A stretch of DNA of 59,979 nucleotides from an uncultured Enterobacteriaceae bacterium (GCA_964523765.1 CAZFZX010000006.1:1-59979), one strand, 5' to 3'. Counted from the first letter of the stretch, positions 27,877-42,822 are shown. A program made the numbers and translations. Notes: generated by a model not told the origin, from the letters alone.

Positions 27877-27908
27877 AACCCGATAAACGCCGGGAGGGAT
27901 TGACGTAC

Positions 27909-30056
27909 ATGGCTGCAAGAAAACGGATAACCCAGGGGAAGAAGAACTGGATCGCTCTGGACGCGGGCGGCACGCTCACCGATGCGGTCATCGTCGACGC
28001 CAAGGGTCAATTTCTGGTCGGTAAACACCTGACCAACAAGCAGGATGAGTCCGTCAGCTTTCTCGGAGCCATCCGCGACGGCGCCGCGACCGACAACCGC
28101 GACCTCGACAACACGCTCGGGAACAGCGACGTCATCGTCTATGCCGGTACCATCATGCTCAACACGCTGCTGAGCAAAACGGGTGCCAAGGTGGGGCTGA
28201 TGGTGACGCAGGGGTTCGAGGACTACCTCCTAATGGAGAAGGGCGAAGGTGGGTGGATCAGTTACCCCTATACCGATCGCTTGCACACCGTCACCCATCA
28301 CCACGAAGATCCGGCTATCCCGCGCGAACGGATCGTCGGGATCCAGGGGCGGTTGGATATGTTCGGCGGCGAAGTGATCAAATTGCGCAAGCAAGACGTT
28401 GAGGAGCAGACAGTCAAACTCCTCGATGCCGGTGCAGAATCGATCGCCGTGATGTTCTTGTTCTCGCACATGAATCCCGAGCACGAACAAGAGGCGGCGA
28501 AGATTATCCGCCGCATCGACAAGAAGATCCCCATCGTGTTGTCATCCGAGATCGCGCCGACGCACAAAGAATACACGCGACTCGCCAGCGTCGTGGCCCA
28601 GGCCTACGCCGGCGAACGCGCCCGCGAACACTTTCAGCAGGTCGAACACAAAGCCCGCGTTCACGGTTTCGATAAGGAAGTCTCAACGCTGCTCGCGCAC
28701 GGCGGAACGGTCCCCATCAGCACGAAACGCCTATACGAGTCTTACGTCTCGGGACCGGTAGGCGGCGTGCTCGGCGGTCACTACATCGGCGATATCCTCG
28801 GCTCCGGCAATGTGGTTGGCTGCGATATCGGTGGCACCAGCTTCGATGTCGGTATCATCCGCGACGGCCTGATCCCGATCGTGCGGGAGCCGACGTTGCT
28901 GAGTTTCCGCACTAATATTCCTATGATCCACAGCGAATCGATCGGCGCCGGCATGGGCTCGGAACTCGGCGTCCATCCGCTCACCGGCAAACTGACGGTG
29001 GGACCGAAAAGCGCTGGCTCCGATGTCGGACGCTGCCTCAACTGGGACGTGCCGACGATCACGGACTGCCACATCCTGCTCGGCTACCTCAACCCGGGAA
29101 ATTTCCTCGGCGGCGATGTGCAACTCGATCTCGACGCGGCCGTGAAAGCGCTGAAACCTATGGCGAAACATTTCAATACGGAAATCTACGAGTTCGCCGA
29201 GCGTGCGCATCTGCTGGTGTGCGATTACATGCGCGAATTCCTGGTCAATATGTTGCGCGGGCGTGGCTACAACACCAGGGACTATACCTTGATGATGTAT
29301 GGCGGCGGGGGGCCCCTGGGTCTCGCCGATGTGGTCTCGGGACTGGAGATGAAAGATGTCGTGAGCTTTCCGTTCGCCGCTGTTTTCTCGGCATTCGGCG
29401 TTTTATGCGCGCCGCGCCGCTACCGCTACCATCAGAGTATCGTCGCCGGTTGTCCGCCTGGGGACGAATCACACGTGCGGCAGGTCAAGGCGCTCGCCGT
29501 CGACGCCATCAACGAAACTTGGGCCAAGCTCGAAGTTCGTGCCGAGGCCGATTTCAAGCTGCACGGCTGGGACTTCGGCAAGGCTACGCTTTCGCGGGTC
29601 GCCTACGTTCGCTTTACCAATCAGCTGTCGGATTTCGAAGTGGTCTGGCCGAAGGCGACGTTATCCTCGATCGACGACCTCGATGAGCTGATGCGGCGCT
29701 TTGAAAAAGTCTACACGACGATCTATCCGGAGCAGGCGATGTATTCGGAAGTCGGCTTTCAAATCCTCGAAGTCGCGCTCACCGCCGACGTCGCAACCCC
29801 GAAACCGGCGCTGCCGGAAATGAAGATGTCGCGGCGTAAACCCGATTCCGCGGCCGAGAAAGAGGCACGCCCGGTATACTTTCGCGGTAAGCGCAAGGAA
29901 TTTCGCGTCTACGAGATGGACGAGCTCAAGGCCGGCAACGTGGTTAACGGCCCAGCTGTGATCGAGCATCCGGCGACCACCCTGTACATCCCACCAGATA
30001 ACCACGCGGCGTTCGACAAGCGCCGCATCATCCACTACCGCCAGGGTACGAAATAA
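27909..30056 (+). CDS. hydantoinase A/oxoprolinase-family subunit; acetone-carboxylase beta-subunit-like
   Basis: ATG 27909 follows GGGAGGG. WIALDAGGTLTDAV...GCDIGGTSFDVG (ASKHA ATPase motifs). At about 715 aa it matches the size of the acetone carboxylase beta subunit. It is first of three co-oriented genes. Confidence 0.8.
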   Translation: MAARKRITQGKKNWIALDAGGTLTDAVIVDAKGQFLVGKHLTNKQDESVSFLGAIRDGAATDNRDLDNTLGNSDVIVYAGTIMLNTLLSKTGAKVGLMVTQGFEDYLLMEKGEGGWISYPYTDRLHTVTHHHEDPAIPRERIVGIQGRLDMFGGEVIKLRKQDVEEQTVKLLDAGAESIAVMFLFSHMNPEHEQEAAKIIRRIDKKIPIVLSSEIAPTHKEYTRLASVVAQAYAGERAREHFQQVEHKARVHGFDKEVSTLLAHGGTVPISTKRLYESYVSGPVGGVLGGHYIGDILGSGNVVGCDIGGTSFDVGIIRDGLIPIVREPTLLSFRTNIPMIHSESIGAGMGSELGVHPLTGKLTVGPKSAGSDVGRCLNWDVPTITDCHILLGYLNPGNFLGGDVQLDLDAAVKALKPMAKHFNTEIYEFAERAHLLVCDYMREFLVNMLRGRGYNTRDYTLMMYGGGGPLGLADVVSGLEMKDVVSFPFAAVFSAFGVLCAPRRYRYHQSIVAGCPPGDESHVRQVKALAVDAINETWAKLEVRAEADFKLHGWDFGKATLSRVAYVRFTNQLSDFEVVWPKATLSSIDDLDELMRRFEKVYTTIYPEQAMYSEVGFQILEVALTADVATPKPALPEMKMSRRKPDSAAEKEARPVYFRGKRKEFRVYEMDELKAGNVVNGPAVIEHPATTLYIPPDNHAAFDKRRIIHYRQGTK

Positions 30057-30082
30057 CGGACGACCATCGGGAACTTTGAATC

Positions 30083-32314
30083 ATGACTAAGAACCAGACA
30101 TTGTTGCAAAAACTGGACGCCTCGGAGCAACTGTACGAGAAAACGGGGCATTACCAGGGCCTGAAGAAGTTACCGGTGCACGACAAGGACCCATTGAAGT
30201 TCGAAGCGTTTCACTCGCGCATCCTGTCGACCATCATCTCCGTGCGCGAGACCATGAAGCACATCGCTTCGTCGCCGGCGATCCGCGACTTCGAGGAGTT
30301 CGTGATCGGTCTCTATACTCCGGAAGGGGACGCGATTGCCCTATCGACCGGCATCATGGTGCACGTACACACCACCTCGGAATTCATCAAGTTCATGATC
30401 CGCAACGGCTACGAAGACGACCCCAAGATCCGCGAGGGTGATATCTTCGAGAACAACGAATCCTGGGCCGGCGGCGTCCACACCCCGGACGTGATGACCA
30501 CTACCCCGTTTTTCTACAAAGGGGAGTTGATTTCCTGGATCGGATCGGTATCGCATGAACTCGAAGCCGGGACCTACGAAGGTCCGGGTATGTCTGTATT
30601 TGCTCCGGACCGCTTCGGTGAAGGCCTGCACATCAGCGCCGAGAAGGTCGGCGAGAACGACCACTTCCGCAAGGACTACCTGTTGCGGCTCAAGATGAAT
30701 CTCCGCAATTCGAACTGGTGGACGCTGGATGACAAGGCCAAGCTGTCGGGCTGTCTCATGATCCGCGAGGCGCTGACCAAGGTGATCGAGGAGTTCGGGA
30801 TCGACTACTACAAGCAGGCGATCCGCGAACTGATCGAGGAAGGCCGGATCAACTTCATCAAGCGCGTCAAGACGACGATGGTGCCCGGTGTCTACCGCGG
30901 GCTAACCATGCCGGTGCACAAGCGATCGCACATCCCCGCGACGCACCCGCTCGCTAAGAACGATTTTATCGATCTGGTACGCAACGATATGGAGGTCACC
31001 GCCGAGGGACATATCGAACTTGATTTCGAGGGCTCGACGGGCTGGAGCTTCCACCCGTTTAACTGCGCCGTCGGCCCGATGAACGGCGGTTTCTGGATCA
31101 CGCTGACCCAACTCCTGAACTATGACGGTCGGGTCAACGATGGCGCTTATCTCGCGGTGAAGCAATATCTGCCCGAGGGTTCTATCGTCAACGCGAACTA
31201 CGCGGGGGCCGCTACGTCACTCGCCTGGTGGACCTTGATCCCGATCTTCGCGAACGTCTGGCGCCTGATCGGAATCAGCTGGTTCGCCCGCGGTTTTGTA
31301 GAAGAGATCATCATGTCGACGCCGACTTGCATCGCCGGCGTCTCGGGCTTCGATCAGTATGGCCAACCGACCGGCTACCAGAACTTCGAAATGGCCGCGG
31401 AGAGTTTTGGCGCCCGCGGCGTCGATGACGGCATGGACTGCGGCAGTCCGATCTGGAACTCCGAGGGCATGCAGGGCGATGCCGAAGTCTGGGAGATGAC
31501 CGGTCCGAACGTCTATATCGGCCGCAGTTTTACCCCGAATCACCACGGGCCGGGCCGCTTCCGCGGTGGTAATGCCTGGGAGTCCCTATGGGTAGTGCGC
31601 GGATCGCGCCTGGTCAACGTCACGTTGTCGTCTTCCGGCGCGCATAACGGCGGCGTGTTCCACAAAGGTCTCTTTGGCGGCTACCCCGCGCCGGGATGGA
31701 AATGCCTGTGGGCGCGCGGCGTCGACCTGCAGGCTATCGCGGACCGCGACGAGCGGATCCCGCGCAGTGTCAACGAGGCCGAAGAGATGTTGAAGGATGG
31801 GCGTCTCGAGGCAGAAGAATGGTATTGCGGCCCGCTCAACACCTGGTCGCCGAACCTTTCCGACGGCGACATCTTTGGCGTCATCTACACCAGCGGACCG
31901 GGCTACGGCGATCCGATCGAGCGCGATCGGGAAATGATCGAAAAGGATCTCGCCAACGGGCTGGTCACACCCGCATACGTACGCAAGGTTCACGGCTTCG
32001 CCAAGACGGAAGCCAAGACAGAAGAATTGCGGGCTAAGATCCGGCGACAGCGCCTCGATGAGTCGGTACCGGCGTCGCAATGGTGGCGCGAAGAACGCAA
32101 ACGCGCGCGTACCGGCGATGTCGGCAAGGTCGTTGCGGAAACGTTTGCCCGCTCCGCATCGTTATCGGAAAAGATTAAGGACGTCTATCTCGATTTCTGG
32201 CAATTGAAGAAGTTTCCCTACACCGATACCGGCACGACCGACTTCCGTACCACGGCACCGACGGGCTTCTACTATCCGAAGTCACCGCAGAAGCCCTACG
32301 TGAAAGGCGCTTGA
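30083..32314 (+). CDS. hydantoinase B/oxoprolinase-family subunit; acetone-carboxylase alpha-subunit-like
   Basis: 743 aa. GDIFENNESWAGGVHTPDV...SWIGSVSHELEAG resembles the metal-site region of hydantoinase-B/AcxB-type proteins. Confidence 0.8.
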   Translation: MTKNQTLLQKLDASEQLYEKTGHYQGLKKLPVHDKDPLKFEAFHSRILSTIISVRETMKHIASSPAIRDFEEFVIGLYTPEGDAIALSTGIMVHVHTTSEFIKFMIRNGYEDDPKIREGDIFENNESWAGGVHTPDVMTTTPFFYKGELISWIGSVSHELEAGTYEGPGMSVFAPDRFGEGLHISAEKVGENDHFRKDYLLRLKMNLRNSNWWTLDDKAKLSGCLMIREALTKVIEEFGIDYYKQAIRELIEEGRINFIKRVKTTMVPGVYRGLTMPVHKRSHIPATHPLAKNDFIDLVRNDMEVTAEGHIELDFEGSTGWSFHPFNCAVGPMNGGFWITLTQLLNYDGRVNDGAYLAVKQYLPEGSIVNANYAGAATSLAWWTLIPIFANVWRLIGISWFARGFVEEIIMSTPTCIAGVSGFDQYGQPTGYQNFEMAAESFGARGVDDGMDCGSPIWNSEGMQGDAEVWEMTGPNVYIGRSFTPNHHGPGRFRGGNAWESLWVVRGSRLVNVTLSSSGAHNGGVFHKGLFGGYPAPGWKCLWARGVDLQAIADRDERIPRSVNEAEEMLKDGRLEAEEWYCGPLNTWSPNLSDGDIFGVIYTSGPGYGDPIERDREMIEKDLANGLVTPAYVRKVHGFAKTEAKTEELRAKIRRQRLDESVPASQWWREERKRARTGDVGKVVAETFARSASLSEKIKDVYLDFWQLKKFPYTDTGTTDFRTTAPTGFYYPKSPQKPYVKGA

Positions 32315-32325
32315 GGAGAATTAGC

Positions 32326-32835
32326 ATGGCAGACGATACATTGAGCAGTCAGGAAGTCACCAACGCTTTGATGAACCGCGATCTGGCGTGGCCGGAACTC
32401 GTCAAACTCATGCGTGAACCGAAATCGGAAAACCGCTTCGACGAGATGATCGCCGCCGTCCAAGCCATGGTCCCGTGGAAAGAAAAGATCCTGCTGCCGC
32501 TCGGTGAGAATTTATTCATCGTCGCGAAAAAGGGTAAGGCGATCATCAAGACTATGGGCGGCGCGGAACTCTGTGCCTGGAATGAGAACTGGAAGATGAA
32601 GTGTCGGGTACGGATCCGAAAGACGAAGGCCGAGTTGAACAAGATCTTCCCGCCCGAGCATATGACGATAGACCCCAACCTCGTCGAACTGCGCGAATGG
32701 ATCTGCCCGAAGAGCGGTGCGTTGCTGGACGTCGACTGCGTACCGCCAACCTATCCGGTGGAGGTCGATTTTACGCCGGATCTGGAAGCTTTCTATACCG
32801 AGTGGTTGGGGCGGAAACTGCCGGTACGCTTATAA
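32326..32835 (+). CDS. acetone-carboxylase gamma-subunit-family protein
   Basis: ATG 32326 follows GAGGAG. ~169 aa; ...LVELREWICPKSGALLDVDCVPPTYPVEVDFTPDLEAFY matches my recollection of the small gamma subunit that accompanies AcxAB-type carboxylases. Confidence 0.65.
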   Translation: MADDTLSSQEVTNALMNRDLAWPELVKLMREPKSENRFDEMIAAVQAMVPWKEKILLPLGENLFIVAKKGKAIIKTMGGAELCAWNENWKMKCRVRIRKTKAELNKIFPPEHMTIDPNLVELREWICPKSGALLDVDCVPPTYPVEVDFTPDLEAFYTEWLGRKLPVRL

Positions 32836-33316: not shown

Positions 33317-33748
33317 TCACTGCTGTATCGATCGCAGATAGATGATCATCTCGAGGACGCGCCCGCGCAGCGCGGTTTCGGAAGCGACGCTGGAACCCTT
33401 CCATTCACCGCCCCAGATCGGCATCTCTTTCGACCCGTGAGCGCCACCGAGGGTCGTTCGCCCGTCGATCGTCTCGAAAATGCGGTCGAATGGGAACGTA
33501 CCACCCGCGTTCTCAGTCAAGACGGTTAAATCGGCAGGCTGTTTCGTCAACATTTTGGCAAACGGCCCGGCCCCTTTCGCGTCGACGCCATGACAGACCG
33601 CGCAGTAATCGCCGAAACGACGCTTGCCGGCCGCCTCGACTCCTTCGTCCGCCGAGGCGATCCCGGCGAACACGAGGACGGAGCAGGACAATGCGACGCC
33701 TAAGGCGCCGTGAAAACTCAAGATACCTTGCGGCGACATTTTCTTCAC
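33317..33748 (-). CDS. c-type monohaem cytochrome, secreted
   Basis: CAVCH haem-binding motif and a signal-like N-terminus (KKMSPQGILSFHGALGVALSCSVLVFAGIASA). The start is GTG 33748, ATG 33739 or ATG 33763. Confidence 0.7.
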   Translation of the reverse strand: MKKMSPQGILSFHGALGVALSCSVLVFAGIASADEGVEAAGKRRFGDYCAVCHGVDAKGAGPFAKMLTKQPADLTVLTENAGGTFPFDRIFETIDGRTTLGGAHGSKEMPIWGGEWKGSSVASETALRGRVLEMIIYLRSIQQ

Positions 33749-33928
33749 GGTTCTTTCCCTCATCGTTACGCTTGAACGATAACCGCACGACACGGCGGCT
33801 ATCGTGCGAAGGTTACACAAAGGAAAGCGCGGCAATGCTGACGCGGGTCAGAAACGGGCCATCGGAAAACGCGGGCGCCGCGCGGGGGGAGCCGGTCGAC
33901 TTCAGCAGGCCGGGAGCACGGCCGACTT

Positions 33929-34681
33929 TCAGGCTAGATTTCTTGCGGCCGCCGGGCTATGAACGATTTCCGACAAGCGAATGCGGTCGATGATTCGCAC
34001 TTGCTTGACGTTAACGGAGGCGACACCGGCATCGTGGAATCGCCGCAACGTCCGGCTGACGGTTTCCGGCGCGAGGCCGAGATAGCTGCCGATGTCGTAG
34101 CGCGACATCGGCAAATATAAGGCGTTTGGATCTCGGCTCAGGTCATGCAGGCGCGTACTGAGTTCAATGATGAAATCCGCGACTCGCTGCTCCGCGCTGG
34201 TGTGGTCGAGCCGGGTCCGAGCATGGCGCTCCATGTGAATTCGATTTGTGATCTTCGATTCGAAATTATCCCGGATCTCCGGTCTGTCGCGGAATAACGC
34301 CGTAAGATCACTGACCGCGAGTGAGCAGTATGCGCTTCTCTCCAGGGTTACAACGGAGTCGTAGTAAACCGGTCGTTGCATCGCCCCAGCGCCGACGATA
34401 TCGGAGGGCAGCAGAAAGGCCGTCACCGATTCGCGGCCGTCGTCGTCGTCGACGATCGCTTTCGCCGACCCGGACCGCAGAAAATAATACGCGGTCATCG
34501 GCGCGCCTTGATTAAACAGATAAGTCCCGCGGGGAACCGGCGGCCGCGCTTTGACGATAGTAGAGAGCGTTTCAAGGACTTCCGCACCCAGATGACCGGG
34601 AAGGCAGAATCCGTGTAGCTGACAAGCCATGCAGATCTGCGCGGACGCGGAAAAGGGTCGATTCGATTCGTCGCTCTCCAT
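33929..34681 (-). CDS. fnr: Crp/Fnr-family regulator of the FNR/ANR type (N-terminal Cys cluster)
   Basis: CMACQLHGFC gives the C-x2-C-x5-C spacing of the FNR [4Fe-4S] ligands, and a fourth Cys lies in SAYCSL. It also has a cNMP-like beta-roll and a C-terminal HTH (IGSYLGLAPETVSRTLRRF). Confidence 0.75.
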   Translation of the reverse strand: MESDESNRPFSASAQICMACQLHGFCLPGHLGAEVLETLSTIVKARPPVPRGTYLFNQGAPMTAYYFLRSGSAKAIVDDDDGRESVTAFLLPSDIVGAGAMQRPVYYDSVVTLERSAYCSLAVSDLTALFRDRPEIRDNFESKITNRIHMERHARTRLDHTSAEQRVADFIIELSTRLHDLSRDPNALYLPMSRYDIGSYLGLAPETVSRTLRRFHDAGVASVNVKQVRIIDRIRLSEIVHSPAAARNLA

Positions 34682-34813
34682 GATTCGGCTCTAGTCGAAG
34701 TTCGCTCCGTGATCGAAGTTCCGTCGGCAGTTAGGCGATGTTCCCGCGGCGCCGTCACACCCGCCACGGGCTGCGCGAATCAGGACGCTTGAAGATTTCT
34801 GACCAACAACTTT

Positions 34814-34827
34814 TTGATTTTCATCTA
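34814..34827. promoter_or_regulatory. FNR/CRP-type box TTGAT-TTTC-ATCTA (9/10 match to TTGAT-N4-ATCAA)
   Basis: Read directly from the sequence, about 133 bp upstream of the fnr-like ATG. It could be an autoregulatory site. Confidence 0.35.
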
Positions 34828-35053
34828 ATTTACCTAGTTTCTGCCGATAATGCGACTGCCCGATACAGAACGCTGTTACTACGCCCGCGGGCGAACGCCT
34901 AGGCAGCGCGCCGTGTCACAGCACAGACCCCAAGTTTCCACCGGTTCGTCGCGCAATACGGCGATAGCGTTCCCGGTCAGCCTTTGAGTTCGACGTTGAA
35001 TGCGGACAGCTCGCATACGACCATCGGGTTCCGTTTCGTGCGCTAGCGGGGCT

Positions 35054-35392
35054 TCATTTCTCGGTGGGCAAGTCGGGCAGACCAAAGGGAGTCGCGTACT
35101 GTAACGCGAGCATATACATCAGACCGCCGTGCGGTTGATCGATTTTAGCCTCGAAATAGACGAAGTCGAAAATGTCGTCCGCGCGCTCGTCCTCTACCAT
35201 CACGGTCAAGATTTCTTTCTCGGACTGTTCCCCCAGACCGCGGTACTTCAGCGGCGTGATCTTTCCGATACCGCGCGCAGTGTTGATATTCGCTGTAACG
35301 ATACCCCAGCGTTCCTTGAGCGTTTCGAGAACACCCGGCGCGACCCCTTTGGGGACCACACACGTTATTAATTTGTGACCATCGCTCTTCAT
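35054..35392 (-). CDS. PII-like (GlnB-fold) small signalling protein, paralog 2
   Basis: 112 aa: KLITCVVPKGVAPGVLETLKERWGIVTANINTARGIGK...KEILTVMVEDERADDIFDFVYFEAKI, a beta-alpha-beta/loop/beta-alpha-beta pattern. ATGA overlap with the upstream gene (35389-35392). Confidence 0.65.
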   Translation of the reverse strand: MKSDGHKLITCVVPKGVAPGVLETLKERWGIVTANINTARGIGKITPLKYRGLGEQSEKEILTVMVEDERADDIFDFVYFEAKIDQPHGGLMYMLALQYATPFGLPDLPTEK

Positions 35393-35775
35393 TGGGCTTC
35401 GGCACCCTCGATTTGTTCGCCGAGTAGGCGTTCTGCGATTTCATGCGGCACGTGTGTCGCGGCCTTCTCCAGCGGGGTCACGTAGATGAAGCCCATCCCG
35501 GGCGTGTCGAGTTTACCGGCCTCGTACATGTACTCGAACACGCGATCGACTTGATCGGTGGCCACCACGATAGTGATGACTTCTTTCTCGACTTCCACCG
35601 TCAACCCGAGAACGCCGAGTCGTTCACGAACGCCGCTGCCTCTCGCGTAGTAGACCGTGGCGCCCTGGGCGCCGGCATCCTGCGCAGCGTCGACGATCGT
35701 ATCCGCCAAGCCTCGTTGGACGATGCAAGTAATGAGCGACACGTCCGTGAGGACGATAATGTCATGCTTTTTCAT
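35389..35775 (-). CDS. PII-like (GlnB-fold) small signalling protein, paralog 1
   Basis: Internal ATG 35775 of ORF 35389..36006. 128 aa: SLITCIVQRGLADTIVDAAQDAGAQGATVYYARGSGVRE...KEVITIVVATDQVDRVFEYMYEAGKL. ATGA overlap with the DUF1538 gene stop (35772-35775). Confidence 0.7.
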   Translation of the reverse strand: MKKHDIIVLTDVSLITCIVQRGLADTIVDAAQDAGAQGATVYYARGSGVRERLGVLGLTVEVEKEVITIVVATDQVDRVFEYMYEAGKLDTPGMGFIYVTPLEKAATHVPHEIAERLLGEQIEGAEAQ

Positions 35776-37541
35776 GTCGATCCTCCAACGGCCTGCTCCT
35801 CTTCCCAATGTTCGGCGCGCCTGCGCTTGGCAATCTTCCAACGCACCCACTGGCCGGTGGCGAGTACGGAAACGATGGGGCCGATCGACGCCATGGCCAA
35901 GATACCAAACCCGTCTGCCGCGCCCACCGCCCCGCCGAGCCCTAGGCCCATAGCGAGAACCAGCGGGACGGTAACAGGCCCGGTCGTGACCCCGGCGCTG
36001 TCCCACGCAATGTTTACGTACTCTTCGGTAGAGATCGCCGTGAGAACCACGGCAATCGTGTACCCGGGGATGATCAGGACGGCGATCGGCAGGCTAAAGA
36101 CGATTTTCAAAATGCCGAGCGCGATGCCGGTACCGACACCGACCGAAACCGCGTTGATCAACATCGATTTTCGAAAGGCGCCGTTGCTGAGGCTTTCCAC
36201 CGTCATACCGAGCGCGTTCAGCGCCGGCTCGGCCATGGTCGCGCCGAATCCCAAAACCCACGCGAACACGGCGGCGATCCCGATACCCAGGCCAACATCG
36301 TAAAGCGGTGAATCGGGGACCACTTCGATCGTCGTGAACGCGCTCGGTACGAGACCGCCGGACTGGCCGCCGAGTTTCGCCAGACCGTAGCTCAAACCGA
36401 CGTTGAATATGACCATGCCGACGACCGCGAGTGTAATGCCGTAGGCGATATTTGCGGGGTGACGGATCTTTTCGTGCAGCACGAACCGCATCACGAGGAA
36501 CAAGAACAACACCAGCGGCAGGATCGCTCGGGCGCCGCTAACGACCTCGAGCATGGGCGTGCGGGCATGCCAGGGGGCGCTTTCGGTTACCGCTGCAACG
36601 CTTGCGGCGGCGATGATACTGTCAACGTCTTCGACGCTGGCAACGAACAACGCGAGACCGTAAACGGCGAGGATCGGAAATAGCGACGCCAGGGTGACGA
36701 TGCCAAAACCCGACAACGAGGAGCGTCCGCGCCCAGCGGAAGTCGCCATACCGATCCCGAGCGCCAGCACCAGCGGAACCGTAACCGGCCCGGTGGTAAC
36801 GGCGCCGCAATCCCACGCCAGACCGAGCACGTGGCGCAACTCGGGGTCGGCAGCAAAATAGAAGGTCAGGCCGATCAGCGGCGCTAGGACCGCATAAATG
36901 AGCGGCTTCAAGCTCCATCCGTAAATGAAACGGAGTGTCCCCAGAACCGCCGCGAGACCCACGCCGATCCCTACGACCAATACCAGCCGACCGGACCAGT
37001 TATTCAACAGGGCGTACAAATACGGGGTCTTCTCTACGTTCACGATGGCCCCGGCCGCTTTGAGCGCGCCGATCGCCGGTTCGGCGAAAGTGACTCCGAT
37101 CCCCAGCAGGAAGGTGATCAGCAACACGGCCGGCAAGGGCGCCTTCGACGGCAGGATACTACCGATGGTTTCACCGAAGGGCATCAAACCGACTTTCAAA
37201 CCTTCCATGAACAACATCAAACCGATGATGACAGCGGCCAGGCCGCCGGTAATGATCCACGAATCGGTGACGTTCTGACGCAGGATCAGAAGTTGAAACA
37301 ACACGAGGTAGGCGGCGAGCGGAACGACCGCTTTGGCTTGATCCCGAAAGCGGACGCTTACGTAGGGTTGTACCAGCCGGTAAACGTCGAGCGAGCGGAG
37401 TTGGAGTTTCGCCTGCCGATGCGCCACGCGTTCGGCCTCGGACTCGATGCTCGGGGCGAGTACGCTATAGCTCAAATATCGTTGTTGGGTCGTGATCTCG
37501 CGGATGAAAGCACCGAAACGGACCTTGTGCTCTGTAGCCAT
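35772..37541 (-). CDS. DUF1538-family polytopic membrane protein (internally duplicated)
   Basis: 589 aa and highly hydrophobic. Two repeats carry near-identical motifs: AWDCGAVTTGPVTVPLVLALGIG (36750-36818) and AWDSAGVTTGPVTVPLVLAMGLG (35940-36008). FAEPAIGAL and MAEPALNAL also pair up. Confidence 0.8.
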   Translation of the reverse strand: MATEHKVRFGAFIREITTQQRYLSYSVLAPSIESEAERVAHRQAKLQLRSLDVYRLVQPYVSVRFRDQAKAVVPLAAYLVLFQLLILRQNVTDSWIITGGLAAVIIGLMLFMEGLKVGLMPFGETIGSILPSKAPLPAVLLITFLLGIGVTFAEPAIGALKAAGAIVNVEKTPYLYALLNNWSGRLVLVVGIGVGLAAVLGTLRFIYGWSLKPLIYAVLAPLIGLTFYFAADPELRHVLGLAWDCGAVTTGPVTVPLVLALGIGMATSAGRGRSSLSGFGIVTLASLFPILAVYGLALFVASVEDVDSIIAAASVAAVTESAPWHARTPMLEVVSGARAILPLVLFLFLVMRFVLHEKIRHPANIAYGITLAVVGMVIFNVGLSYGLAKLGGQSGGLVPSAFTTIEVVPDSPLYDVGLGIGIAAVFAWVLGFGATMAEPALNALGMTVESLSNGAFRKSMLINAVSVGVGTGIALGILKIVFSLPIAVLIIPGYTIAVVLTAISTEEYVNIAWDSAGVTTGPVTVPLVLAMGLGLGGAVGAADGFGILAMASIGPIVSVLATGQWVRWKIAKRRRAEHWEEEQAVGGST

Positions 37542-37580
37542 GGGCTCTTTATCCGGGCGGGTTCGGGGACGCGGCGCGGG

Positions 37581-38069
37581 CTAACCGGGCTCCGCCGCTT
37601 GCTGTCCCGCGTGGTAGGTTTCGTAGACATAGATCGGGATGTGCATCGATCCGAGGTGGCGTTCGATCAGCGGTTTGACCTCGGCCCATTGCATTCTACC
37701 CACGCCGGTCGCCAGCCGGGGCAGCGCCAGGGAAGCGATTTTTTCCTCGACAATGAACGCGGACAACGCATGGAGGGCGTGGCTGACGTGCGTTGCTGAA
37801 GCCGGTCCCGGCCGCTGATTGTGGCTCCGGGGCGGGTCCTGGGTGAGCAAATTGACGATCCGGGTGCCGTCCGCTCCGGCCCAAGCCCATAAGCCGCCTG
37901 CCTTGCAGCCGCCCGAGTGGCAATAGTGGCGAAAATCCTTGTACATTGCCGGCCACTGCTGGCGGAGCGACAAAGCCAGACCAGCGTCGAAATGGTCGTC
38001 CGGGGCAACGCCGTGGGCGATGGCGACTGCCTTGGTGAGGAGAATGTCGCCACTAACGTAATGCAACAT
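37581..38069 (-). CDS. macro-domain protein of the TARG1/OARD1 type (ADP-ribose-binding or ADP-ribosylhydrolase-like)
   Basis: YVSGDILLTKAVAIAHGV...DAGLALSL... and LALPRLATGVGRMQWAEVKPLIERHL...IPIYVY parallel the GDLF...SLAHCIS...GAGIA and MPRIGCGLDRLQWENV blocks of TARG1-type macro domains. It ends 39 bp upstream of the DUF1538 gene on the same strand. Confidence 0.6.
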   Translation of the reverse strand: MLHYVSGDILLTKAVAIAHGVAPDDHFDAGLALSLRQQWPAMYKDFRHYCHSGGCKAGGLWAWAGADGTRIVNLLTQDPPRSHNQRPGPASATHVSHALHALSAFIVEEKIASLALPRLATGVGRMQWAEVKPLIERHLGSMHIPIYVYETYHAGQQAAEPG

Positions 38070-38150
38070 AACCGGTTCCTTGTTCGGAATCCTTATTGGG
38101 TCGAATCCTGCGTCGACAGAGGAAATCTAGACGCTTTCGTCAATCGTCGA

Positions 38151-38164
38151 TTGCGCGAGATCAA
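38151..38164. promoter_or_regulatory. weaker FNR-type box TTGCG-CGAG-ATCAA (8/10)
   Basis: It lies in the divergent region, about 88 bp upstream of the macro-domain ATG (38069) and about 145 bp upstream of the TPP-enzyme ATG (38303). Confidence 0.25.
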
Positions 38165-38302: not shown

Positions 38303-39952
38303 ATGGGAGTTCATGGGGGCAGGCTCGCGGCGCGGGCATTAAAACAGGCTGGCGTCGAGTGCATTTTCACGCTCAGCGGTGGTCACGTAATGGCGATTTA
38401 CGATGGCTGCCTCGACGAAGGTATCGATGTTATCGACGTCCGCCACGAACAGGCTGCGGTGCACGCGGCCGATGCGTGGAGCCGGATGAATCCCGGCAAG
38501 CTGGGGTGCGCCGTGTTGACCGCGGGGCCCGGCGTCACCGATGGGGTGACGGGCGTGGCGAACGCCTGGCGCGCCAACAGTCCCATCCTGGTGATCGGCG
38601 GGCAAGGGCCGTTTAACAACCTGCGGCGCGGATCGCTGCAGGAAATGGACCATGTGGCAGTAATGAAGCCCATCACCAAATGGGCCGACACCTGCTACGA
38701 CACGCGGCGGATCCCGGATTACATCGAGATGGGGATCCGTCATGCGGTTTCGGGCAACCCGGGACCGGCATTTCTGGAAATCCCGATGGATATCTTGAGT
38801 GCTGAAGTGGAATGGGAGGACGTGCGTTTCCCCACGATGCGCCCGGAGCCGCCGCTGTTCATTCCCCCCCAGGTCGACATCGACGCCGCCCTGAAGATTC
38901 TTACCGCCGCCGAGCGGCCGGTGATGATGGCTGGTACCAGCGTGAAATGGTCCAATGCATCGGCCGCCCTGCAGAAATTCATCGAAACCGTGCATATCCC
39001 GACGTTCGTGAACGGTATGGGGCGGGGCACGGTGAGACCCGGCACGCCGGAACTCTTAAATCGGGTAAGAAAAGAGGCCATCAGTCAGTGCGACGTGTTC
39101 GTTTGTGCCGGCGTGCTCCTCGATTTTCGTCTCGGCTACGGCGCTACGATCCCCGCCGATGCGAAGATCATCCAACTGGAGATCGAAAACGAACTGATCG
39201 GGACAAACCGTTCGGCCGATGCGGCGGTAGTCGGCAATATCGCCGCGGCTTTCGACGCGATGCTGGAATCGATCGGCAACAGCGATAACGTCCTGGATTA
39301 CAGCGGTTGGCGAGACACCTTGATCAGCCGCGAAACGGAGCTCGAAGAAGCCTTCGTCGCGCAACTGAATTCCGATGACGTGCCCATCGACCCATTGCGT
39401 TTGTGCCGTGAGATCCGGGATTTCGTGGTGGGTAAAGACATGATTCTCATTGGCGATGGCGGCGACATCGTCGCGCAGGCGTCGAAGGTCTTACCCGTCC
39501 CGGAAGAAAACTGCTGGATGGACCCCGGTCCCCTCGGCACGCTTGGCGTCGGAATGCCTTTCGCGCTGGCAGCCCAACTGGCCAAACCGGAAAAAAGGGT
39601 CCTGATCATCTACGGCGACGGGGCGTTCGGCTTAAACGGGTTTGAGTACGATACGGCGGTGCGGTTCGAACTGCCGATCGTCGGGATCGTCGGCGTCGAT
39701 GCGGCCTGGGGTCAAATGGCGAGACCGCAAGCCGCTGTTTTCGGGGTGAACCGGCTGGTAGCAACCAAGCTCAATTACACCCGCTACGATAAGATTGTCG
39801 AAGCCATGGGCGGACACGGCGAATACTGCGAACGGCCCGAGGAGATCGGGCCGGCTCTGGAACGAGCGTTCGCCTCCGGTAAGCCGGCACTCGTAAACGT
39901 CGTGATGCGCCAGGACATCGGCACCGGGATGAAAGGCAGCACCTATATTTGA
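38303..39952 (+). CDS. thiamine-diphosphate-dependent enzyme (acetolactate synthase large subunit / 2-hydroxyacyl-CoA lyase / oxalyl-CoA decarboxylase-like)
   Basis: LKQAGVECIFTLSGGHV...RHEQAAVHAADAW...LTAGPGVTDGVTGVANA...LQEMDH plus a C-terminal GDGAF..N TPP-binding motif (IIYGDGAFGLNG). Confidence 0.8.
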   Translation: MGVHGGRLAARALKQAGVECIFTLSGGHVMAIYDGCLDEGIDVIDVRHEQAAVHAADAWSRMNPGKLGCAVLTAGPGVTDGVTGVANAWRANSPILVIGGQGPFNNLRRGSLQEMDHVAVMKPITKWADTCYDTRRIPDYIEMGIRHAVSGNPGPAFLEIPMDILSAEVEWEDVRFPTMRPEPPLFIPPQVDIDAALKILTAAERPVMMAGTSVKWSNASAALQKFIETVHIPTFVNGMGRGTVRPGTPELLNRVRKEAISQCDVFVCAGVLLDFRLGYGATIPADAKIIQLEIENELIGTNRSADAAVVGNIAAAFDAMLESIGNSDNVLDYSGWRDTLISRETELEEAFVAQLNSDDVPIDPLRLCREIRDFVVGKDMILIGDGGDIVAQASKVLPVPEENCWMDPGPLGTLGVGMPFALAAQLAKPEKRVLIIYGDGAFGLNGFEYDTAVRFELPIVGIVGVDAAWGQMARPQAAVFGVNRLVATKLNYTRYDKIVEAMGGHGEYCERPEEIGPALERAFASGKPALVNVVMRQDIGTGMKGSTYI

Positions 39953-42822
39953 GTCTCGCGGGCGGGCGCGGCGTCGACGACATTGGATTCGTGTGCTAGA
40001 TCGGGCTCGCCGCAATGGGCGAGGATATGTCGGCGAGCGTGGTCCCTGAGCTTCACCGCTGCCGACCACGGGTCGAGGTCTCTATCCGGTGCCAATGATG
40101 CGCCAACGGCCACCGTTATCGCGCCGCGGCGCGGGTACCATGAGTGTGCTCGCAGTATCGAACGGGTACCGTGGATCGCGATCGGGACGACCTCGACCCC
40201 GGCCGCGACGGCGGCTGTGAAAGCACCCATGTGAAACGGCAGGACGCCCGGCATCCGTTTGAACGTGCCTTCGGGAAACACCATCAACGCATGCGACTCG
40301 GCCACGGCCCCCGCGGCGTCCTCCAGTTCGGCGATCCCTTTGGTGCGGTCGAAGCGCTCAACGAAACGCGCGCCGATCCGGGCCAATGGACGGCGCAGCA
40401 GCCAGGATTGCCGGAGTTCGCCCTTGACCAGAAAATCCACCGGGTACGGCAGCAGGGATACGAGCAACGGGCCGTCGAGATAGCTCTGGTGGTTGGCGAC
40501 GAACACGCACGCCCGCGGCCGTGGCGGGATGCCTCCCTCGACCGAGATCGGGGTTGCGGTGAGCGGCGCGAGAGAACGCGCTAGCGCTCCGATGCCTCGC
40601 CACAGGACCGTCCGTGGCAACACCATCGCCAGCGACCAGGTGCAGACGCCGACCACGGAAAATACGCCCCAGGCATAGCACGCAAACGCTGACTCAGCCG
40701 CGAACCGGAAAAGCCGGCGCAACTGGGGCGCGATCCCCGCGATCCCGAGCCGCACAATCTGCACCCAGACGGCTTTCTCTTGCTGCGCCAACTGACCGCG
40801 CTCATACAACTTACGACTCGCGGCGCGCCGGATTTTCCCGCTCGAAGTTTTCAATATCGTGTTGGGGGCGACCAGAACGACGTCGTCTGGCGGCGCCGTT
40901 ACCACATCGGTGGCGATTTCGTTGATGGCGGTACGCAAGCGCTCACGGGCTTCCGGTTGTTTCTTGCGCGTCTCCGCCAGCACCACCAGCCGCTCGGTAC
41001 CGGTCTGCGCGTCGGCTGAGCCGAAAACCGCCACGCGGCCTTTGCGAATACCGTCTAGTTCGCCGATCAAATCCTCGAGTTCGGTAGGATAGATATTGCG
41101 CCCCGCGCGAATGATGAGGTCTTTGCTGCGGCCGGTGATGAACAACTCGCCTGCCGCGATGTAGGCAAGGTCGCCCGTCTCCAACCAATCGTCCTGAAAC
41201 AGCCCGGCGGTTTTTTCCTGGTTGCGGTAATAGCCGCGCGTAGCGGACGGCCCGCGAAACTGCAGCCGTCCTTCATTGCGCTCCGGTAATTCGCGGCCCG
41301 AGCCGTCGACCACGCGGATCTCATGGCGCGGCAGCGGCAAGCCGCAGCTGACGATCCGCAGCGCCTCACCCGCCGACGTCTCGGGCGCTATAGGCCGCGC
41401 CTGCGCTTCTCTCGCCAGAGTGCTGCGGTTTATCGTATCCACCAGCGGACCCCGCCCGATCGGGCTGAAGGTCAATCCGACGGAGCATTCGGCGAGCCCG
41501 TAGACGGGAAACATCGCGGTGCGGCGAAACCCATAGGCGGCAAACCGCTCACAGAAAGCTTCCATCGTCGCCGGACTGATCGCCTCGGCGCCATTGGCGA
41601 CGATCCGCCAATGGCTGAGATCGAGGCCTTCGATATCTTTGTCTTCGATCCGCCGCAAACAGAGCTCAAAAGCGAAATTGGGCGCCGCCGACAAGGTCCC
41701 CTGGTAACGGTGTATCGCCCACAACCAGCGCTGCGGTCGGCTTAGAAACTGTAGCGGCGGCATGATCACGAGCCGGATCGCATGATAGAGGCTGCCGAAC
41801 CAGGCTCCGATCAATCCCATGTCGTGATAGAGCGGTAACCAGCTGACGAATACGTCGCGGGAATTGACCTGCATGCCGGTGCCGTCAGCACGAATATTGG
41901 CGAGGAGGTTGGCGTGCGACAACGCAACGCCCTTCGGGTCACCGGTGCTACCCGAAGTGTATTGGAGAAAACCGATATCCTCCGCACGCCGCACGACGGG
42001 TTCACGCGCGAAGTCGGGCTCAGTGAGTTCGCCGACGGTAAAAACGTGCCTGAGCGAGTCGACTTGGGAGGTCAGCAGATGCGCTACGGTTTTCGCGTCG
42101 GCGACGGTGATCAGCATGCTCGCGCGACAGTTTCCGAGAATGCTGCTCTGACGGCGTAGATGGTCCTCGAGTTGTGCGCGCCTTACCGGCGGATAGATTG
42201 GTACCGGAACGGCGCCGGCTAGAACGACGCCATAGAAGGCGAAAAAATAGTCGCGACTCGTCGGCAGCATCAGTGCGACGGTTTCCCCCGGATCCAGTCC
42301 GTACTTCTGTAACCCCGCGGCCACCGCCGAGGCGCCGTCCCATAATCCCCGATACGTAATGATTTCGCCGTCTGTGTAATCGTCGTAGAACTGTATGTGC
42401 GCCCGTTCGGGATTGCGCTCGACGTGCCAGCGCAAAATGTCGGACAAGGTTTCGGCGCCGTCGGGAGCCGGTTCGGCGTCGCCGGACGTCACGTCGATCG
42501 CTTCGAGCGACAGTTTCGCTGTCTTACCGCCCGCGGCCCTAATTAAGGCCCGGAGTACATCACGCGGCGTTTCGGCCGAGGTGGTCCATTGCTCGGAAAG
42601 GGTCACACCGAAGGTACGTTCGACCCGGGCAAACATCTCGACCCGTCCGAGGCTGTCCAGTCCGAGATCCCGATCGAAAGACGAATCCAGGGTCGGCGGG
42701 CGAGCGGAGGTGTCATGCGGGTGCAGTTCGTGAGTGACGGCGGCCACCACGTCGAGCAGAGTGGCGGCGGCGCGCTTCGGATCGGTCATCGAGGGTACGG
42801 ACGATGGGGACGAGGAATCCAT
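39943..42822 (-). CDS. tri-domain fusion: N-terminal acyl-carrier domain, fatty-acyl-AMP-ligase-type adenylation domain, TM segment(s), and C-terminal PlsC-type (lysophospholipid) acyltransferase
   Basis: ACP-like DLGLDSLGRVEMF (Ser57, 42652-42654). AMP-binding FLQYTSGSTGDPKGV with the FAAL-like LAGAVPVPIYPP. Hydrophobic FACYAWGVFSVVGVCTWSLAMVL. Acyltransferase blocks NHQSYLD (HxxxxD, 40474-40491) and VFPEGT. It overlaps the TPP gene 3' end by 10 bp (convergent). Confidence 0.8.
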   Translation of the reverse strand: MDSSSPSSVPSMTDPKRAAATLLDVVAAVTHELHPHDTSARPPTLDSSFDRDLGLDSLGRVEMFARVERTFGVTLSEQWTTSAETPRDVLRALIRAAGGKTAKLSLEAIDVTSGDAEPAPDGAETLSDILRWHVERNPERAHIQFYDDYTDGEIITYRGLWDGASAVAAGLQKYGLDPGETVALMLPTSRDYFFAFYGVVLAGAVPVPIYPPVRRAQLEDHLRRQSSILGNCRASMLITVADAKTVAHLLTSQVDSLRHVFTVGELTEPDFAREPVVRRAEDIGFLQYTSGSTGDPKGVALSHANLLANIRADGTGMQVNSRDVFVSWLPLYHDMGLIGAWFGSLYHAIRLVIMPPLQFLSRPQRWLWAIHRYQGTLSAAPNFAFELCLRRIEDKDIEGLDLSHWRIVANGAEAISPATMEAFCERFAAYGFRRTAMFPVYGLAECSVGLTFSPIGRGPLVDTINRSTLAREAQARPIAPETSAGEALRIVSCGLPLPRHEIRVVDGSGRELPERNEGRLQFRGPSATRGYYRNQEKTAGLFQDDWLETGDLAYIAAGELFITGRSKDLIIRAGRNIYPTELEDLIGELDGIRKGRVAVFGSADAQTGTERLVVLAETRKKQPEARERLRTAINEIATDVVTAPPDDVVLVAPNTILKTSSGKIRRAASRKLYERGQLAQQEKAVWVQIVRLGIAGIAPQLRRLFRFAAESAFACYAWGVFSVVGVCTWSLAMVLPRTVLWRGIGALARSLAPLTATPISVEGGIPPRPRACVFVANHQSYLDGPLLVSLLPYPVDFLVKGELRQSWLLRRPLARIGARFVERFDRTKGIAELEDAAGAVAESHALMVFPEGTFKRMPGVLPFHMGAFTAAVAAGVEVVPIAIHGTRSILRAHSWYPRRGAITVAVGASLAPDRDLDPWSAAVKLRDHARRHILAHCGEPDLAHESNVVDAAPARETQI

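Follow-up and report, generated by a model that had tools for sequence, protein, structure and literature searches.

A conserved operon of a DUF1538 membrane transporter and two PII-type proteins, a putative PII-gated cation/proton antiporter module

Few signal processors are as widespread as the PII proteins. In the GlnK-AmtB system a PII trimer plugs the ammonium channel, and in the SbtB-SbtA system the PII-like protein SbtB controls the Na+-dependent bicarbonate transporter SbtA. PII proteins can also work as a couple, as do NifI1 and NifI2, which form a 2:1 heterotrimer with non-equivalent ligand pockets on nitrogenase (PDB 9P1X, PMC12439982). For the membrane protein family DUF1538 (PF07556), the described representative is UmpAB of Halomonas zhaodongensis, a heterodimeric Na+(Li+,K+)/H+ antiporter studied in everted vesicles of Escherichia coli KNabc, a strain in which co-expressed umpA and umpB also conferred salt and alkali tolerance (PMC5484666). 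The locus considered here combines elements of these systems. It lies in a 59,979-nucleotide stretch of DNA from an uncultured Enterobacteriaceae bacterium (GCA_964523765.1, CAZFZX010000006.1:1-59979; hereafter the window) and comprises a macro-domain gene, a gene for a DUF1538 membrane transporter, and two genes for small PII-like proteins, PII-1 and PII-2 (Table 1). An original prediction for this locus held that no DUF1538 protein has an assigned function, which is wrong: UmpAB has been published (PMC5484666), and the NCBIfam UmpA and UmpB models match the two halves of the window protein.

The transporter gene and its two PII-like neighbors form a unit that recurs far beyond the window. 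A census was based on one genome per species and on the best 80 of at least 553 matching stretches, whose DUF1538 proteins are still 60–70% identical to that of the window. A PII-1 orthologue is found directly downstream of the DUF1538 gene in 79 of the 80 loci, the single exception being a contig end, and a PII-2 orthologue comes next in all 73 loci that reach far enough. The DUF1538/PII-1 junction is a 4-nucleotide (nt) overlap in 54 of 79 loci, and the PII-1/PII-2 junction spans 30 nt or less in 65 of 73. The carriers belong to Gammaproteobacteria, Alphaproteobacteria, Zetaproteobacteria, Nitrospinota, Nitrospirales, and SAR324, and further to Bdellovibrionia, Myxococcota, Planctomycetota, and Thermoanaerobaculia (about nine phyla overall). 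The arrangement is more than chance, as it recurs across the 80 species genomes wherever the contig is long enough. Beyond this three-gene core nothing is conserved, as judged by clustering the flanking open reading frames (ORFs) of 79 loci and by a Pfam scan of 136 immediate neighbors. The fused DUF1538 form itself accounts for the at least 553 matched stretches of species genomes; a word-indexed protein search returned thousands of proteins at 66–89% identity, all named DUF1538 or without a name, and an exhaustive search of 1.84 billion representatives gave 3027 clusters at E ≤ 0.001.

More distant DUF1538 members (24–40% identity) keep the PII link in five plasmid or chromid loci. In three Firmicutes, namely Vescimonas, Paraclostridium, and Peptoclostridium, the gene next to the fused DUF1538 gene on its downstream side encodes a 222–224-residue protein, annotated simply as “P-II family nitrogen regulator”, whose C-terminal half passes the Pfam P-II model and whose N-terminal half is divergent. 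For Paraclostridium, this N-terminal half agrees with the profile of the PII-1 family at 85% probability, and, judging from their sequences, these proteins are natural PII-PII fusions. The alphaproteobacteria Methylocystis and Chelativorans have two split DUF1538 genes followed by one PII gene. Because such distant members retain the link, the PII partnership appears to be a property of the whole DUF1538 family and not of the window locus. By analogy with GlnK-AmtB or SbtB-SbtA, this strict and often translationally coupled linkage fits the ligand-gated transport module that had been proposed for the window. The wider neighborhood proposed with it stood in part: the two PII genes are constant, while the macro and FNR genes are confined to the window's clade.

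In the window, the ORF list and the sequence bear out the layout first described, namely four co-oriented minus-strand genes with a 39-base-pair gap between the macro and DUF1538 genes (37580-37542) and ATGA stop/start overlaps at 35775-35772 (DUF1538/PII-1) and 35392-35389 (PII-1/PII-2). A GGAGGA Shine-Dalgarno sequence stands 5 nt before the PII-1 ATG.

That the two small proteins are GlnB-like paralogs, as had been suggested from sequence patterns, is now supported by Pfam for PII-1 and by profile and fold searches for PII-2. PII-1 scores 43.6 bits against Pfam P-II (PF00543; gathering score 25) and matches archaeal and bacterial GlnB/GlnK structures in the PDB, at 1.6e-5 as a single sequence and at 2.4e-7 as a family profile. 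PII-2 has no Pfam match, and its relatives are named “hypothetical protein” in their sources. It is nonetheless 33% identical to PII-1 (E 1e-16), the two families match each other with 99.7% probability in hhalign, and a profile of 73 PII-2 orthologues matches PII proteins in the PDB, best of all NifI1 (9p1x_H, 2.1e-5). The AlphaFold2 (AF2) model of PII-2, with a predicted local distance difference test score (pLDDT) of 83.5, has the beta-alpha-beta/loop/beta-alpha-beta topology, and its top 50 Foldseek matches are all of the GlnB/GlnK type (template modeling (TM) scores of 0.6–0.76, probability 1.00). PII-1 and PII-2 are thus members of the PII superfamily that make up a distinct, non-canonical subfamily.

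The departures from the canonical pattern lie in the loops and the phosphate-binding residues. Ten DUF1538-linked PII domains were aligned with three reference PII sequences, and residues were equated on the basis of the alignments together with established GlnB numbering. The T-loop of the linked domains is 4–6 residues shorter than in the references; it contains a near-invariant R-E-R-L-G in PII-1 and an invariant Arg and Gly in PII-2. An E-x-EKE(I/V) motif precedes a conserved Lys equivalent to K58. The B-loop reads P-(G/N/H)-x-G-hydrophobic, or D-x-P-(G/H)-x-G-hydrophobic when set against the canonical T-G-x-x-G-D-G-K, with no GDGK, and no basic residue aligns with R101 or R103. Because of this last feature, the ligand may differ from the ATP/ADP/2-oxoglutarate set.

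Each of the known PII systems is matched in some respects only. As with GlnK-AmtB, a PII-fold gene stands beside a transporter gene with which it would be co-expressed, the T-loop has a conserved Arg, and the closest solved folds of PII-2 are GlnK and GlnB. Unlike GlnK-AmtB, the window has an unrelated transporter, a T-loop about five residues shorter, a P-(G/H)-x-G-hydrophobic B-loop, no R101/R103, two different PII proteins, and no nitrogen-metabolism context. The likeness to SbtB-SbtA consists of a PII-like sensor in an operon with a putatively Na+-linked secondary transporter and of the idea of adenine or cyclic nucleotide sensing; the differences are that neither sequence nor fold prefers SbtB over GlnB/GlnK, that no carbon-concentrating context is present, and that the PII proteins come as a pair. 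NifI1/NifI2 likewise stem from two adjacent paralogous PII genes. Their target is a soluble enzyme, whereas a transporter is the proposed target here and the heteromer is a proposal as well, and the NifI proteins keep the canonical ADP/ATP/2-oxoglutarate residues (PMC12439982), which the DUF1538-linked PII proteins do not.

The 589-residue transporter contains two DUF1538 domains (Pfam, E 1e-105; 352 bits against a gathering cut-off of 22.6). Its N- and C-terminal halves are 31% identical, so the internal duplication noted at the outset is real. The N-terminal half resembles the UmpA model (206.5 bits, residues 64–294) and the C-terminal half the UmpB model (181.6 bits, residues 336–573) of the NCBIfam pair NF041627/NF041628, and on these sequence matches the protein is taken as a homologue and not an orthologue of UmpAB, a distant and fused relative. 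Both share PF07556, the repeat order A then B, and about seven helices per repeat. Unlike UmpAB, which has two subunit genes, the window protein joins both repeats in one chain and has a conserved N-terminal extension of 60–70 residues; in contrast to the window, the published account of UmpAB names no PII partner, the insert cloned there having stopped at umpB (PMC5484666), and a plasmid search returned no Halomonas record. The extension (residues 1–70) is Lys/Arg-rich and modeled with low confidence, and has invariant R8, F9, P59, Y60, and R64. It is kept in fused DUF1538 proteins of the gammaproteobacterial type and absent from the Firmicutes and split forms. Ten long DUF1538 representatives (801–1332 residues) hold DUF1538 only, with no domain fusions.

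Carriers coupled to cations or protons typically have buried carboxylates where their helices break, and the DUF1538 repeats are modeled with such a pattern. An alignment of nine repeat copies from five systems (24–31% identity) shows two invariant features in every repeat, a Glu-Pro within an AEP motif (E154 and E438) and an Asp within a (W/F)D..GVTTGP motif (D244 and D514). Both motifs fall at breaks within membrane helices in the AF2 model (pLDDT 74.5, predicted TM score 0.75), and the conserved Glu and Asp residues may therefore form ion sites. Lys and Arg are concentrated in the N-terminal 71 residues (12) and the C-terminal tail (6), and the inter-repeat linker has 1 Lys/Arg and 5 Asp/Glu; from this charge distribution, the two repeats are probably inverted in the membrane. 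No solved structure resembling the transporter was found by phmmer, by a nine-repeat profile, or by Foldseek with the AF2 model (best TM scores of 0.11–0.15). As there is no solved relative, no fold-based mechanism could be borrowed.

Clues to the substrate come from the neighbors, the habitats, and the literature. The commonest extra neighbor is a CPA1 Na+/H+ exchanger of about 826 residues with a C-terminal cyclic-nucleotide-binding domain, present at 11 loci (L013, L014, L015, L016, L019, L029, L035, L039, L046, L059, and L076) of Nitrospinota, Gammaproteobacteria, and Alphaproteobacteria (reported as three phyla). It is co-directional with the module in 7 loci and overlaps the DUF1538 start in 3 (L013, L014, and L076). 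Adenylate/guanylate cyclases and GAF proteins recur as neighbors at low frequency. Going by record titles, the carriers come largely from lineages whose marine habitat is well known. UmpAB homologues have been cited as salinity adaptations in cable bacteria, and in a machine-learning study the 20 Pfam families ranked highest for predicting the pH optimum of growth included DUF1538, alongside components of Mrp, Trk, and Kdp. Combined, these clues favor monovalent-cation/proton homeostasis over carbon or nitrogen uptake, although cation/proton as the substrate, taken by itself, stays a little short of an even call.

An alternative keeps the PII-gated DUF1538 transporter and gives it a substrate other than Na+, K+, or H+, such as bicarbonate, ammonium, nitrate, or another metabolite. 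The well-studied PII-transporter pairs all carry carbon or nitrogen species (GlnK-AmtB, SbtB-SbtA, and PII-NrtABCD), many carriers of the module are autotrophs (Nitrospinota, Mariprofundaceae, Chromatiaceae, and clam symbionts), and the window protein is a distant relative of UmpAB. Many other carriers are, on the other hand, heterotrophs (Halieaceae, Pseudohongiellaceae, and Pseudomonadales), and the paired membrane carboxylates suit cation/proton binding better than anion binding. Among the 136 immediate neighbors, the Na+/H+ exchanger is the top family, and none of the 25 commonest families consists of RuBisCO, carboxysome, carbonic-anhydrase, amtB, glnA, or nitrate genes. The window does have a cluster of the acetone-carboxylase type 2 kb from the module, which had prompted a guess at inorganic-carbon transport. 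This “carboxylase” is not linked to DUF1538 modules elsewhere, and with no carbon-fixation genes among the top neighbor families the guess loses its footing. A non-cation substrate is accordingly regarded as unlikely.

The proposed mechanism starts from the three-gene operon of a DUF1538 transporter and two PII-type sensors as the conserved unit. The transporter would be a secondary ion carrier of the DUF1538/UmpAB family, most likely a monovalent-cation/proton antiporter, built of two homologous repeats that would each hold a membrane-embedded Glu and Asp at helix breaks. PII-1 and PII-2 would be made in the cytoplasm in fixed proportion through translational coupling, form a mixed complex, and dock on the cytoplasmic face of the transporter through their Arg-rich T-loops, which contain R50 and R52 in PII-1 and R51 in PII-2; the N-terminal extension is a candidate docking site. 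The complex would switch transport on or off in response to a small-molecule signal, either adenine nucleotide/energy state or a cyclic nucleotide. In the window's clade, the macro gene would ride on the transporter transcript and lie outside the conserved mechanism. Family membership, the PII fold, the strict gene linkage with its overlaps, the conserved carboxylates, and the conserved and enriched FNR-type box are established by the analysis; the contact between the PII proteins and the transporter, the heteromeric PII complex, the substrate, and the ligand are parts of this scheme that we infer. That the PII proteins bind and regulate the DUF1538 transporter is probable, and the statement as a whole, a cation/proton antiporter gated by a PII pair, is held to be somewhat better than an even proposition. 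Its most specific form, in which a mixed PII-1/PII-2 complex with a non-canonical ligand site gates a cation/proton antiporter of a fold without a solved relative, is tentative and on balance doubtful.

The PII proteins could instead be structural or assembly subunits that the transporter cannot do without, much like the cytoplasmic rings of Ktr/Trk, and not ligand-dependent regulators. The absolute linkage, the translational coupling of the first junction, the loss of the canonical nucleotide-phosphate residues, and the existence of fused double-PII forms would all agree with such a role. However, UmpA and UmpB alone gave antiport in E. coli (PMC5484666), some systems have one PII domain and others two or a fused pair, and conserved Gly, Arg, and Lys positions persist in the T-loop and at the base of the ligand cleft, which is what one would expect of a sensor. 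A purely structural role is therefore considered improbable. Since UmpAB was active with no PII gene on the clone, the PII proteins are more readily seen as regulatory than as catalytic. The natural 1:1 fusions in Firmicutes suggest a PII stoichiometry other than a simple 2:1 trimer.

Several observations weigh against a PII-gated cation/proton antiporter and temper the reading given above. (i) The UmpAB assignment rests on one heterologous-complementation study. (ii) The window protein falls far short of the equivalog cut-offs for UmpA (490 bits) and UmpB (500 bits), so its substrate could differ. (iii) The AF2 model of the transporter is of moderate confidence and has no similar solved structure. 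(iv) K90, R101, and R103, the phosphate-binding basic residues of canonical PII proteins, are not conserved in the linked ones. (v) Physical contact between the PII proteins and DUF1538 is deduced from gene linkage, and a two-repeat transporter is not obviously matched to a threefold PII trimer. (vi) An adjacent Na+/H+ exchanger could mean a complementary rather than the same activity.

The macro-domain gene had been rightly recognized as of the TARG1/DarG type. Its 162-residue product matches NCBIfam DarG over residues 2–154 (75 bits, covering the macro half only of the 338-position model) and can be aligned from end to end with the DarG macro domain (PDB 5M31, 2.3e-9) and human TARG1 (4J5R, 2.5e-7); its Pfam Macro score of 18.1 bits lies below the gathering score of 22. 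Unlike DarG, it has no C-terminal domain, no DarT toxin gene is adjacent, and its link to DUF1538 is limited to one clade. A DarTG toxin-antitoxin system is not in evidence, the neighbors of the macro gene being a thiamine pyrophosphate (TPP) enzyme gene and the DUF1538 gene.

The extended model first put forward united a macro-derived ADP-ribose input, FNR, and the transporter with its PII proteins into a five-gene functional system. Macro, DUF1538, and both PII genes do stand together in four contigs of relatives that are 87–88% identical (L090-L093), with an 88%-identical macro orthologue upstream of DUF1538, and a conserved FNR-type box precedes the macro gene. The 39-base-pair gap has no terminator-like site, and the macro gene is probably co-transcribed with the module. 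It is nevertheless missing at the DUF1538 locus of every one of the 80 species genomes, and also in L001, an 82%-identical relative in which the box stands directly before DUF1538. Moreover, three genes separate the FNR gene from the module in L090 and L092, and where DarG has the second Lys of its “PTKKHW” motif, the window copy has an Arg (residues ~68–73). As an observation in its own right, the window motif reads DPPRSH and that of the L090 orthologue DPPKSH, with Lys. The macro gene is a clade-specific addition outside the conserved mechanism, and its role as an ADP-ribose-linked input is unsupported. The census rejects macro and FNR genes as conserved partners and largely refutes the five-gene model, which is now very improbable. 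With macro linkage limited to the close relatives, the claim reduces to the three-gene core, an outcome that the original prediction had itself foreseen.

Downstream of the module, the FNR-type gene and the c-type cytochrome gene (33317-34681) were correctly described, as seen from the Crp/FNR domains and the CxxCH motif. The FNR-type protein matches Pfam cNMP_binding, HTH_Crp_2, and Crp, has an N-terminal cluster C17-x2-C20-x5-C26 in its translation, and scores 137 bits against NCBIfam Fnr (cut-off 228). An FNR homologue occurs near the module only in L001/L002 and L090/L092, that is, in the window's clade.

The FNR-type box upstream of the macro gene, TTGATCTCGCGCAA, has 2 mismatches from TTGAT-N4-ATCAA. 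Taken alone it is not significant, being one of 31 matches with up to 2 mismatches in the window, where 15 are expected (shuffled sequences gave 15.0 ± 3.6, and not one of 100 had as many as 31). The excess could itself reflect codon composition or a large FNR regulon. The box gained weight through its conservation in relatives and its enrichment across the family. A 17-nt block that includes it, TTGATCTCGCGCAATCG, is identical in three otherwise diverged upstream intergenic regions and found nowhere else among the loci, and L001, which has no macro gene, has TTGATCTGGGGCAA at -109 of the DUF1538 gene. Of 77 loci, 12 have a TTGA-N6-(T/G)CAA box within 250 nt upstream of the DUF1538 gene, in four cases a perfect TTGAT-N4-ATCAA, compared with 17 of 627 (2.7%) upstream of other ORFs in the same loci (binomial p ~1e-6). 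The box is probably a control site of the operon, as predicted from this pattern, with the FNR-type protein as its candidate regulator, and roughly one lineage in six possibly shares FNR/ANR-type control. An insertion of the macro gene between the FNR-box promoter and the transporter gene seems to have taken place in the window's clade. The hint of O2-dependent expression in the original prediction is partly supported, by the upstream box, conserved in relatives and enriched in other lineages, and not by the FNR gene, which is clade-specific. A separate match, TTGATTTTCATCTA at 34814-34827, has one mismatch from the FNR consensus and lies ~135–145 nt upstream of the start of the FNR-type gene (34681); it may be an FNR autoregulation site.

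The surroundings of the module differ among close relatives. In L090 (7765-10680) and L092 (6158-9128), genes of the GCS2 (carboxylate-amine ligase), AstE/AspA, and DUF3429 types lie between PII-2 and the Crp/FNR gene, and a DUF2189 gene lies upstream of the macro gene. The absence of all four from the window (compare 34682-35053) suggests that its locus was recently rearranged. Farther upstream, a minus-strand gene at 39943-42822 encodes a 959-residue Aas-like fusion of phosphopantetheine-binding, AMP-binding, and acyltransferase parts, which is syntenic with L001 (67% identity).

Table 1. Features of the DUF1538 locus in the window and of the fused PII genes in Firmicutes (positions in the window unless a locus label is given)
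Feature	Position	Strand	Remarks
Macro-domain gene	37581..38069	minus	162 residues; stand-alone TARG1/DarG type
DUF1538 membrane transporter gene	35772..37541	minus	589 residues; two repeats fused
PII-like 1 gene	35389..35775	minus	128 residues; Pfam P-II match
PII-like 2 gene	35054..35392	minus	112 residues; divergent paralogue of PII-1
FNR/FixK-type box TTGATCTCGCGCAA (gene strand)	38151..38164	minus	~82-95 nt upstream of the macro start codon
FNR-type regulator gene	33929..34681	minus	250 residues; Crp/FNR domains and Cys cluster
c-type cytochrome gene	33317-33835	minus (as 33835-33317)	CxxCH haem motif
Hydantoinase A (718 residues), hydantoinase B (743 residues), and acetone-carboxylase gamma subunit (174 residues) genes	27900-32835	plus	acetone-carboxylase-type cluster
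Tandem PII-PII fusion genes, Firmicutes	L086:6548-7222, L088:5629-6297, L094:5466-6134		after a fused DUF1538 gene

PII control of a transporter is already known, and genome pipelines already label PII-1 “P-II family nitrogen regulator”. A PII pair on a DUF1538/UmpAB transporter is not described in the searchable literature: the link is absent from publications that mention DUF1538 or PF07556 and from the PII “valve plug” preprint. The comparison also corrects an annotation, that of the PII-2 proteins now listed as “hypothetical protein”, and would place in a physiological setting a Pfam “domain of unknown function” with one heterologous characterization and no solved structure. The module is compact, testable with existing assays, and unchanged across at least 73 species genomes that span about nine phyla. 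As the known transporter targets of PII proteins carry nitrogen or carbon species, a PII pair on a cation/proton antiporter would extend PII control to ion and pH homeostasis. If the proposal is true, a cation/H+ transporter would come under PII control for the first time, NifI1/NifI2 would be joined by a second heteromeric PII system, and ion and pH homeostasis would be tied to energy state, cyclic nucleotides, and, through the FNR boxes, oxygen in hundreds of mostly marine species.

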